A stretch of 64,000 bases of DNA from Escherichia phage S127 BCL3. Under the pieces are notes generated by a model, which worked only from the letters and a program-made list of their open reading frames with translations, was not told the DNA's origin and searched no databases. Location of the stretch: the sequence record OQ626344, one strand, 5' to 3'. Position 1 is the stretch's first letter. Each line of letters starts with the position of its first letter. Made by a program: the position numbers and the translations under genes. Of this stretch, positions 50,162-55,795 are shown in pieces.

Positions 50162-53100
50162 TTAAAGAGAGAAAGTCGCGTAGGCTCCCAGACGATACTG
50201 CTGGTCACCAGGGAACATAACACCTATAGAGGCTGTCCCTAGAATCCTGCCTTCCTTTCCAGACTCCATTCTGAACCCTACCCATCCTGAACTCCTTGCA
50301 GCCTCGATGTTGTCGCTATACCCGAAAGTGGCAAGATCGTCAACACCAGCCCCAAACAGCAACTGAAGCTGACTTCTCGGAAGCCCTATAATTTCAGGAA
50401 TATATGCACCAAAGTACACCATCTGCCCTACCTTAGGACCGCTGCCGTACTCCATCGGCTTGCTTGTAGCAAAAGTCTTCATACCAGAAGTCCCTGCCGG
50501 ATTAGGGTATGCCCCGTTTGTTGCTGTACCTATCCACATTCTCCACTGTGGTGTCATCTGTTTGACAGTAAAAGATGTTGAAGACGTTTTGCGACCTGCA
50601 TCATCAGTAGCTACAAACGTTATAGTGACATTACCAGGAGCTTTAAATGTTACCAGCCCTGTGGTAGCATCCACTGTTGCAATGTTGGTATTACTGCTTT
50701 CCCAAGTCTTTCTAATCCCAGACACATTGGAAGGGGTAATAGAAGGTTCCTGCATCTGCAGTTTACCACCCACAATCCCTATGCCGTTACCTGGGTTATA
50801 CAACGCCCCAACTTCATCTATAATGTTACCTGCCTTGAGACTGTACTTCCTTGAGAAGTTGTAAGTTCCGTTATAAGCGTGTGTCCCTGAGAAGGTGACA
50901 TCTGCTTTTCCGTAAGAGATGCAAACCAAAGCATACTTCCTGTCAGGCAACGTTTCTCCAGTCTCTGGGTGAGTTTTACCTACCTGGAACACACTCGGGT
51001 CAGTGGAGTCGTGGCTATCACTAACGGAGCTTGGACCACCCATCAGTTGTGACAAGCAATTCCTTACCCATGTCCAGTTATTGTCACTGGAGAAGTCTAC
51101 AGTCAAATCAAACACAACCCACTCATTTGGCTTCCACACAGGTGTTGTGATCAACTTACCAACACCCCCACCCTGAAGAGTAGGAGATTGTTCAGTGATC
51201 AGGGCAGAGTATGCCAGAGTGCCCAACTGCATAGTCTGGCTTGCTGTCCTTACTACCTTAGAATCAGCATCTGTGAAGTTGTTGATGATCTGGAATGTGC
51301 CATAAGTGTTTTTACAGGTAATTCTGGCGTTCAGTGTGTCAATCTTCCTCACATCTGCCATAGCAGTGTTAGACACAGAGAAGTCAGAAGCTTTAGCTGA
51401 GTTTGCCGCAACAGCAGGATCAACGTTAAGAGTTGCGTTGAACTGACAGGCAGGAGTAACCAGCAGCTTGTTATCACCTATTTGCTTCCATGAAACACTT
51501 TGAACAGGGAGATTCCATTTAATACCTGAGAAAACTTTAGCAACCCTTGGTCCCAGAGCTCCCGTCCTGTTGTCTTTACAGCACATGGACATAGTGATCG
51601 TTGACGGGGTGGCCTGACCAAACAATTGTTGTGCTTTTGCAGAGGACATGGTGTAGAAATTGTCCTTAACAAACTCATCAGCCGCTAACGATCCGTCAGA
51701 TCTCCACCATTGCACCTGGTACCCAGTCTTATCCCAGCCACCGACCTGCTTTAAGTCCTCCCAAGAGATTTCCAAATCTCCGGTGGTAGGGTTAATTGCC
51801 GCAGTTCCTGGTGTTCCAGATGACCATATTGGGATATCGAACCACGCTGGTTTAACAGACTGCACTGCGTTAGGTCCTATTGCAGCAGCAAGTTGTTGAC
51901 CCATCAATACGCGAGCATCTTTCACCAGACCCCACTCAATCATAGACCCAGAGTAACCCTCTTTCTTATATGCGGATGACCCATTCAAGTGAATAAGTCT
52001 ACTTGTGCCGAAGTTATGTGCTCCACCGCCGTTATCGTCTGCAAAATTGGTTATGATTCTATCCCTGATGTTTTTCCATGCCCTACCCCCAATCTCGTAG
52101 TCATGGTCATAACATCTTTGCAGCGTTGTCCAGCAAATGATCGCCATCCTTCTGCCGTTACTGAAGCCAAAAGCCTGATCGTTAAGCTCTCTCCACAAGT
52201 AGCAGTTAGTGGTCCACATAGCTCTGTGAATGTTGAACCAGTTTATAGACTTGGCTGAGTTATCCCACTGAGTCCCAGGTAATTCAGGCCACACTGCATT
52301 AACCAGCATGTCTTCTGTTCCTGCATCAACCAAGAACCCTCTTACCTTTTTACCCATGCCTACCCTGTCTTTTGCAATCCAACTGCCAAACAATCTCAGT
52401 TTTGGACCGTAAACAACATCTTCCGGATGCTCAAAAGAGACATACTTCAGATATACTGTAGGGTCACCATAGGTGCCATCACAAACAGCTTTGTGCATGT
52501 TCTCGCCAAGGTCTAGACGAAGTCCTGTTACAACTTTTGACGTGTCGGTGAATTTGTCTGTTAAATCAAATTCATACCACCACCAACCTGCACCCAACAA
52601 TACCTTCTTACAACGCTGCGCATCTGTATCAGATATTCTCTTATCTCCTGAAAAAGGTGAGTCAGCAAACTGATAGTGCAGAGCAATTTCAAAAGGATGT
52701 GTGGAGGTCCCGTTTTCTGCAAGGACTTGTTTACCTATTAAGTCACACTTAATAATCATCACAACACGTTTGTACCCATTTGTTACTGGGATCTGCATAG
52801 ACATAGATGTCCCGTCCATGTTTGATCTCAGCGCAGTCATGATGATATAAGGATCAACGGCATTACCAAGAGTTTCAGGCCCTGGAATTATCTTATACTT
52901 CTTAACCTGCCCCATGATGTAATCACTGGCGTAAGTTGCAGCCTCGAAGCAAGATCCCCCGTTAGGCAGTTCCCCTGGCCCCCAGAAAAATGCGCCATAA
53001 CAGTTATAAAACCACTTGTTAGGGTCGTATTTGTTCTTGAAGGTCTGAACCTCGTTGGCCTGTTTTGTCAAGAAAACCTGCGTATCTGTAAAGATTGCAG

Positions 53101-55795: not shown

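Follow-up and report, generated by a model that had tools for sequence, protein, structure and literature searches.

What does a 5.6-kb gene in the tail cluster of an Escherichia coli phage encode, and does its product take part in adsorption to the host? We addressed this question for Escherichia phage S127 BCL3 (sequence record OQ626344) in a stretch of 64,000 nucleotides (nt), hereafter the window, where the gene occupies positions 50162-55795 on the minus strand. An earlier note, made from the letters alone, had described the product as a giant tail-cluster protein with an immunoglobulin-like (Ig-like) domain, presumably a fibre or tailspike. Our analysis favours a different account: the giant protein is probably a modular, beads-on-a-string accessory adhesin and not a classical trimeric fibre or depolymerase tailspike. 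The proposed mechanism has the following features: (i) an N-terminal peptide and a propeller would dock the protein on the virion, most likely on the conserved head at the C-terminus of the long tail fibre encoded just before it (gp28 in phage rV5), (ii) an Ig-like stalk would present a variable tip, and perhaps also a central module, to a variable glycan of the host surface, and (iii) the C-terminal tip would be the ligand-binding end and would add a reversible, strain-specific step to adsorption. This step would not be needed on E. coli K-12, where an N4-gp65-like protein binding NGR, together with short tail fibres, would suffice. The docking, the ligand and the stoichiometry of the giant protein are points that we infer.

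The open reading frame (ORF) listing of the window contains the gene as a single intact frame of 1877 codons plus stop, starting with ATG; the earlier note had recognized the frame without giving its strand. A GGAG ribosome-binding site lies 6 nt 5' of the ATG. The product has a mass of 208 kDa, an isoelectric point of 6.2 and 3% Trp, and no transmembrane or signal-peptide-like segment was found in its 1877 amino acids (aa). The probability of 1877 codons without a stop, calculated from base composition, is ~10^-50.6, and 20 shuffles of the window produced no stop-free stretch longer than 220 codons; thus, an open frame of this length did not arise by chance. The gene matches 120 phage records with 80-98% nt identity, 107 of which cover at least 80% of the gene, and nearly all of which are Escherichia Vequintavirus (rV5-like myophages). 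Nucleotide identity to phage NHEP1 is 97.8%, and the proteins of NHEP1, EmilHeitz and rV5 are 98.9%, 98.1% and 93.3% identical to the giant protein. The family phrog_15684 spans aa 1-1876 (4461 bits), and the gene order around the giant gene corresponds gene for gene to that of EmilHeitz (Bas49) and rV5. Because the family match is end to end and the genomic position is the same, we assign the gene, by sequence and synteny, as the Vequintavirus ortholog of rV5 gp27 (YP_002003529), also known as BASEL bas49_0041 and phrog_15684. Among the matching records are 15-16 GenBank entries of the MG0656xx series (for example, hits H31, H35, H118, H123 and H126) that carry the full-length gene at 85-91% nt identity and are named 'Campylobacter phage' with the host C. 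jejuni; this host attribution looks doubtful.

Fourteen orthologs were taken from independent phage records and IMG/VR contigs, and 13 of them are intact (1818-1878 aa). The pooled ratio of nonsynonymous to synonymous substitution rates (dN/dS; Nei-Gojobori) is 0.07 over the giant gene and does not exceed 0.15 in any 60-codon window up to aa 1740. The gene is under strong purifying selection along its whole length. The earlier note had allowed for a sequencing frameshift that would reveal several smaller genes; the intact orthologs and the low dN/dS reject this possibility. The remaining ortholog, from phage JES2013 (locus L015), has a frameshift ~140 nt into the gene, and its deposited coding sequence is shortened and starts 100 nt in; this could be a sequencing error or a natural knockout.

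The only fast-evolving part is the C-terminal tip. In the last ~135 residues the proportion of nonsynonymous differences (pN) is 0.09-0.16, dN/dS is 0.13-0.41 and insertions and deletions occur, including a ~59-aa deletion in the DrSchubert ortholog. The allelic differences from the Vequintavirus orthologs are concentrated in the same residues, and a tblastn search with the C-terminal 298 aa separated two main allele groups at ~96% and ~80% identity.

Outside of these close orthologs the family is small. A word-indexed search of 5.8 billion proteins yielded only 15 clusters, two close and 13 distant; the same type of search with the N-terminal 450 aa gave fragments of the same protein only, and a scan of IMG/VR gave three loci only. 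The distant clusters (P0003-P0015) come only from metagenome-run assemblies, where they lie on contigs of 110-142 kb; they share 44-59% identity with the giant protein over its N-terminal 76%, and their C-termini have diverged. No cultured phage of the searched phage collection falls into this identity band. On one distant contig the homolog again directly follows a fibre gene, of 584 aa. A contig of this lineage (L031, Logan SRR25477885, 140 kb) encodes the divergent giant protein at 4001-9823 and, 1.4 kb downstream on the opposite strand, a protein with a YadA_anchor domain of trimeric autotransporters (11189-12298).

The N-terminal part of the giant protein connects it with proteins of other phage genera. 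Its first residues, MLPIPLL, follow a pattern M-x-P-I-P-x-x that recurs in Phapecoctavirus (MFPIPIF), Seunavirus (MYPIPAL) and gp152 of phage phi92 (MYPIPLF). In a search of the whole phage collection, the first ~200 aa showed 40% identity to the start of an 890-aa Phapecoctavirus 'tail protein' (E 2e-23) and 30% identity to proteins of Seunavirus, phages of Salmonella and Cronobacter. These relatives match WD40_RLD (E 9e-11 to 2e-8) and the RCC1 repeat (23.9 and 28.4 bits against a Pfam cut-off of 21.7), and have two Big_2 domains after the propeller. The match of the giant protein itself to PF25390 (WD40_RLD) is weak (22 bits, E 1.2e-4, against a whole-domain cut-off of 150), and weak RCC1-like matches of this type are found in 12 of the 16 family members. 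In phmmer alignments the first three blades and the last blade are colinear with the shorter relatives, and seven G-x-N/G-x-x-G-type blades are readable by eye in aa 40-440, blades 4-6 by sequence reading only. Comparison of the N-terminal profile with itself by hhalign revealed no significant internal repeats (one weak off-diagonal match, E 0.14), and the structural model is of no use in this region, so that we call the region a probable RCC1-like beta-propeller (PF25390 / PF00415) and no more. It is the most conserved part of the family.

Comparison of the giant gene with its shorter relatives revealed both common and distinguishing features. The 890-aa Phapecoctavirus protein (ukendt gp231 / phAPEC8, phrog_11922) and the 570-aa Seunavirus protein are likewise encoded by the last gene of the tail operon, start with the same motif and have a homologous RCC1-like propeller followed by Big_2. 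In contrast to the giant protein, both lack the ~1200 aa between these two parts, and their ends differ from it, with BspA-type leucine-rich repeats in Phapecoctavirus and nothing further in Seunavirus. The phi92 gp152 protein, of only 202 aa and again last of its tail operon, joins the peptide directly to two Big_2 domains and has lost the propeller. The gene for gp152 in phi92 (locus L021, 11321-11929) is followed by gp153 (12096-12983), which has a weak match to a sialate O-acetylesterase family (SASA, E 0.008), a suggestive observation in a phage of polysialic-acid-capsulated hosts.

The ~1200 aa missing from these relatives include a region, aa ~450-840, that is all-beta in a low-confidence model (predicted local distance difference test, pLDDT, 45-77) and has weak Bact_surface_Ig-like matches at aa ~506-560 in 12 of the 16 family members. 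The structure was modelled in two halves from an alignment of the 16 family sequences; fold searches used the C-terminal half, which is confident only in its beta-sandwich and Ig-like parts. The central module that follows is Trp/Cys-rich, predicted to be helical and very strongly conserved. Pfam and PDB sequence searches gave no match for this module, and an exhaustive HMMER profile search with aa 800-1440 against 1.84 billion representative proteins returned the family itself only. The module may have an enzymatic role. The beta-sandwich inserted in it exists among the distant homologs as two very different alleles, with 14-28% and 56-66% identity to the window protein; the proteins carrying either allele are otherwise colinear. 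Because some of the distant homologs are mosaics of both sandwich lineages, the sequence pattern indicates recombination inside the giant gene.

The Ig-like domain reported by the earlier note is confirmed. The quoted segment, IATVDATTGLVTFKAPGNVTITFVATDDAGRKTSSTSFTV, corresponds to aa 1705-1744 and overlaps a Pfam Big_2 match (PF02368) at aa 1681-1732, positions 50600-50755 of the window, with E 1.4e-8 and 35 bits against a gathering cut-off of 22.8. The Big_2 stretch also aligns to the Ig-like domains of intimin in PDB (1e5u and 1f00, E 1e-3 to 2e-3). In a Foldseek search against PDB, the model of the C-terminal half found strings of Ig domains, namely Sap, EA1 and SbsB/C S-layer proteins, cadherins and PrgB, a generic result. 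The description as a giant multi-domain protein also stands.

The orthologs are named in databases as 'hypothetical protein', 'Ig-like domain-containing protein', 'structural protein with Ig domain' or 'lateral tail fiber protein with intimin domain', the last being the label of both bas49_0041 (EmilHeitz) and bas54_0041 (MaxBurger); the latter was checked as an ortholog of the giant gene. Intimin and invasin resemble the giant protein in one ~50-aa Ig-like domain with E ~1e-3, and because the similarity is limited to this domain, the label 'intimin domain' means only 'Big_2'. Unlike intimin and invasin, the giant protein has no membrane segment, no match to barrel or LysM families and no C-type lectin-like tip.

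The words 'lateral tail fiber protein' in the BASEL label imply an interpretation close to that of the earlier note: the protein would be a canonical trimeric fibre or tailspike, with an enzyme that degrades or deacetylates polysaccharides in its central part. Its gene does lie among tail-fibre genes, in a group of phages whose fibres are known to bear enzymes; the central ~500 aa, with their strong conservation and invariant acidic and aromatic motifs, might form an active site or a glycan-binding groove, and a variable C-terminus is typical of receptor-binding proteins. Nevertheless, neither a beta-helix, collagen, a coiled coil nor an intramolecular (S74) chaperone was found by Pfam on the 16 members, by searches of PDB sequences, by the exhaustive profile or by Foldseek of the C-terminal half, although sequence searches could miss a novel trimeric fold. 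No catalytic family (glycoside hydrolase, lyase, or esterase/deacetylase) appeared at E<=1 in Pfam or PDB, and the profile of the whole family found nothing below E 0.1 among PDB sequences. The recognizable parts are a probable RCC1-like propeller and then strings of beta-sandwich and Ig-like domains, comparable to those of adhesins and S-layer proteins; folds of this kind typically form monomeric modules. Finally, the giant gene is not followed by a tail-fibre assembly gene. The proposed fibre or tailspike with enzymatic or carbohydrate-binding modules is therefore not borne out by these searches, and we regard the trimeric enzymatic fibre as unlikely, though less so than the other alternatives to the accessory adhesin.

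The genomic context agrees with the placement in a tail cluster. The giant gene is the last gene of the minus-strand tail-fibre operon and directly follows the gene of a 581-aa tail fibre, and the plus-strand genes beyond it (an early-gene cluster) converge on the operon. The 48-nt gap between the two minus-strand genes contains a GC-rich hairpin with a T-run that is identical to t028, a predicted rho-independent terminator of rV5. Its presence suggests that expression of the giant gene is reduced relative to the fibre genes, and the gene may depend on terminator read-through; in the proposed mechanism the hairpin would keep the copy number of the adhesin low. The hairpin directly after the giant-gene stop is a putative bidirectional terminator. 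A sigma-70-like TTGACA-17-TATTGT sequence upstream of the giant gene was considered as a promoter and rejected, since it lies inside the conserved C-terminal codons of gp28 and the number of such matches equals the shuffle expectation.

The upstream fibre gp28 is the most likely carrier of the giant protein. Although gp28 has no match in the Pfam copy used, it aligns from residue 8 to its C-terminus with a 793-aa 'putative tail fiber protein' chain in the phiTE baseplate structure 9CUY (9cuy_g, E 4e-78). In phiTE, N-terminal residues 14-171 of the long tail fibre were modelled on the outer wedge and the sheath initiator (PMC11972413). The C-terminal head of gp28 (last ~130 aa) occurs in 385 phage records, jumbo phages among them. 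The gene of a fibre with this head at its end precedes that of a protein with an MxPIPxx start in Vequintavirus, Phapecoctavirus, Justusliebigvirus and Seunavirus; Certrevirus has the same layout, with a next protein that starts with MIPFAII or MYPFAII.

Five lines of evidence point to docking on this head: (i) the MxPIPxx start has been kept even in the propeller-less gp152 of phi92, (ii) the upstream fibres of three genera resemble one another in nothing but their last 100-130 aa, the collagen/fibritin-type fibres of Phapecoctavirus and phi92 (gp151) being 49-51% identical to gp28 in this part, (iii) the alignment of gp28 with the phiTE chain includes the residues modelled on the wedge, (iv) cryo-electron microscopy (cryo-EM) of Bas49 and Bas54, which located three of nine annotated fibres, described one unannotated class of Vequintavirinae fibres with an N-terminal helical bundle, two beta-helices and a C-terminal head, and this head is in contact with a density that was left unassigned and was taken by the authors for a possible tip adhesin, and (v) the Certrevirus protein CB7_37 (43 kDa), encoded after the fibre, has been confirmed in virions by tandem mass spectrometry (MS/MS).

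Several observations weigh against this account. The jumbo phages that carry the gp28-type head have an unrelated next gene, and Mydovirus Ro1 carries the head with no following gene. Sequence homology between CB7_37-type proteins and gp27 was not detected by phmmer or jackhmmer, and the link between them consists of synteny, a similar N-terminal motif and weak propeller-type matches only. The unannotated fibre class (RBPseg RBP65/TC8) may be gp28, which is a guess from its described architecture. The structural models are poor, with a mean pLDDT of 41.9 for the N-terminal half and 54.1 for the C-terminal half. The cryo-EM studies of Bas49/Bas54 and phi92 did not locate the giant protein; in the 2026 structure of phi92, fibre II has no assignment and gp152 goes unmentioned. 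In the proteome of rV5 virions obtained by multidimensional protein identification technology, locus 27 had three peptides, nine spectra and 3.1% coverage, the peptides being non-tryptic and of poor rank; the non-structural protein rIIA reached the same level, and gp27 is not among the proteins that the authors gave as confirmed by mass spectrometry.

Detection at the level of noise suggests a further explanation, namely that the protein is not part of the virion but is expressed late and either stays in the cell or is released, where it might, for instance, alter or bind material of the host envelope at about the time of lysis. It would then have no more than the operon in common with the tail proteins. 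The predicted terminator that separates it from the fibre genes, its dispensability for infective virions and its absence from the located components of three cryo-EM studies (Bas49/Bas54, phi92 and phiTE) would agree with such a role. However, the protein has no signal peptide or membrane segment, the N-terminus is homologous to proteins annotated as tail proteins, and the syntenic Certrevirus protein is present in virions; moreover, flexible distal proteins of low copy number are routinely invisible in averaged cryo-EM maps. We consider a non-virion protein very unlikely.

Genetic evidence on dispensability comes from phage Bas54 (MaxBurger), where transposon mapping by HIDEN-SEQ showed that bas54_0041 tolerates disruptive insertions (bioRxiv 10.1101/2025.11.20.689424). 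Because such insertions are tolerated, the Bas54 ortholog is dispensable for infecting E. coli K-12 and for making infective virions. In the same work 'some lateral tail fiber genes' were conditionally essential on clinical isolates, and the text names none of them (bioRxiv 10.1101/2025.11.20.689424). NGR, the primary receptor on K-12, has been assigned to the N4-gp65-like protein (bioRxiv 10.64898/2026.04.02.716166), which corresponds to positions 60987-63059 of the window. The minus-strand gene at these positions encodes a 690-aa protein with Calx-beta, NCTSP_N and NCTSP TIM-barrel domains (E 6.6e-80), like N4 gp65.

Dispensability in the laboratory would also be expected of a Hoc-like protein that decorates the surface of head, neck or tail, or forms a whisker there, and whose Ig-like domains adhere weakly and without specificity to mucus or to glycans of the cell surface. 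Over its C-terminal 285 aa the giant protein matches phrog_215 ('structural protein with Ig domain'), a family filed under head and packaging, and a Foldseek search against viral models (BFVD) returned, apart from fragments of the family itself, Ig-bearing head, major tail and Hoc-type proteins. Furthermore, the phi92 fibre gp151 has a fibritin_C match and is annotated in its record with a 'potential capsid binding domain'. This explanation is difficult to reconcile with the homology of the upstream partner gp28 to a fibre on the phiTE baseplate wedge, with a fast-diverging tip that carries insertions and deletions, which fits specific ligands better than generic stickiness, and with the size of the protein, as 1877 aa with a propeller and a conserved 500-aa module far exceed the known decoration proteins. 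Thus, we find a Hoc-like decoration quite improbable, if a little less so than a protein outside the virion.

Two known systems illustrate what the accessory adhesin may resemble. Ig-like domains of the Hoc/gpV type are dispensable in the laboratory and are thought to bind surface carbohydrates weakly. They occur as small appendages of essential head or tail proteins or in short decoration proteins, whereas in the giant protein the Ig-like domains are a minor part of a separate 208-kDa protein. A functional analogy is provided by T-even phages, where gp38 sits on the distal end of the fibre and carries the specificity determinant. Like gp38 on gp37 of T2 and T6, the giant protein is a separate product encoded directly after a fibre gene and would be distal and variable in specificity; unlike gp38 (~260 aa), it is seven times larger and has a putative attachment, and the two show no relationship in sequence or fold. 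The presence of Ig-like (Big_2, FN3, I-set) domains on virion proteins, as proposed here, has precedents in T4 Hoc and the C-terminal domain of lambda gpV (Fraser et al. 2006).

The adhesin account could be extended to Vequintavirinae and Stephanstirmvirinae as a whole. In this tentative extension, which we think doubtful as it stands, the conserved fibre head would be a universal socket, the MxPIPxx start with the RCC1-like propeller would be the plug, and the phages could mount interchangeable distal adhesins of 200-1900 residues on a single fibre, to which Vequintavirus would have added a ~500-residue module of an undescribed fold acting on or binding a host glycan.

Table. Coordinates of the giant gene, the modules of its product and the adjacent features in the window
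Feature	Position	Strand	Basis
Complete ORF, rV5 gp27 ortholog	50162..55795	-	ORF listing, phrog and phage-record matches
N-terminal heptapeptide MLPIPLL	55775..55795	-	M-x-P-I-P-x-x start common to related genera
Probable RCC1-like seven-bladed beta-propeller, aa ~40-440	54476..55678	-	Weak PF25390 match, relatives above RCC1 cut-off, colinear alignment
Beta-sandwich / Ig-like region, aa ~450-840	53276..54448	-	Weak Bact_surface_Ig-like matches; all-beta model
Central family-specific module, aa ~841-1329	51809..53275	-	Conservation; no outside relatives
Beta-sandwich inserted in central module, aa ~943-1125	52421..52969	-	pLDDT 62-86; allele pattern
FN3-like beta-sandwich, aa ~1330-1427	51515..51808	-	pLDDT 62-78; weak fn3 match in one family member
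Ig-like domain array including Big_2, aa ~1590-1760	50516..51028	-	Pfam, PDB alignment, pLDDT 80-92, Foldseek
C-terminal tip, aa ~1740-1877, sole fast-evolving part	50165..50578	-	pN, dN/dS, insertions and deletions
GC-rich hairpin flanked by T-runs, directly after giant-gene stop, between convergent operons	50125..50146	.	Corresponds to rV5 t027/t026
Terminator-like hairpin and T-run between fibre stop and giant-gene start	55815..55836	-	Identical to rV5 predicted t028
Upstream 581-aa tail fibre, rV5 gp28	55844..57589	-	Homology to phiTE baseplate long-tail-fibre chain
gp28 C-terminal head, aa 452-581, proposed docking site	55847-56236	-	Conserved across genera

Elsewhere in the window, a 394-aa ORF at 39599-40783 on the minus strand corresponds by size and synteny to a MoxR-type ATPase (bas49_0063). 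Its Bas54 ortholog has recently been reported as needed against the predicted defence system DS-28.

The gene was already known, as were its size and the Ig-like domain: rV5 gp27 was entered in the 2013 genome paper as a 1878-aa conserved hypothetical protein with PF02368 Big_2 (PMC3606486 Table S3), and these features have been in databases since. The refinements added here are modest and comprise the probable propeller and the start peptide common to several genera, the pairing of the gene with a conserved fibre head, the central module specific to the family and the variable tip. Few E. coli phages are isolated as often as the rV5-like ones, whose broad host range makes them candidates for therapy. 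The giant protein is the largest protein of their structural cluster, and strong selection conserves it although it is of no use on K-12. Should it prove to be an exchangeable adhesin mounted on a fibre tip, it would offer a determinant of host range for engineering and would account for the unassigned density in the published maps.

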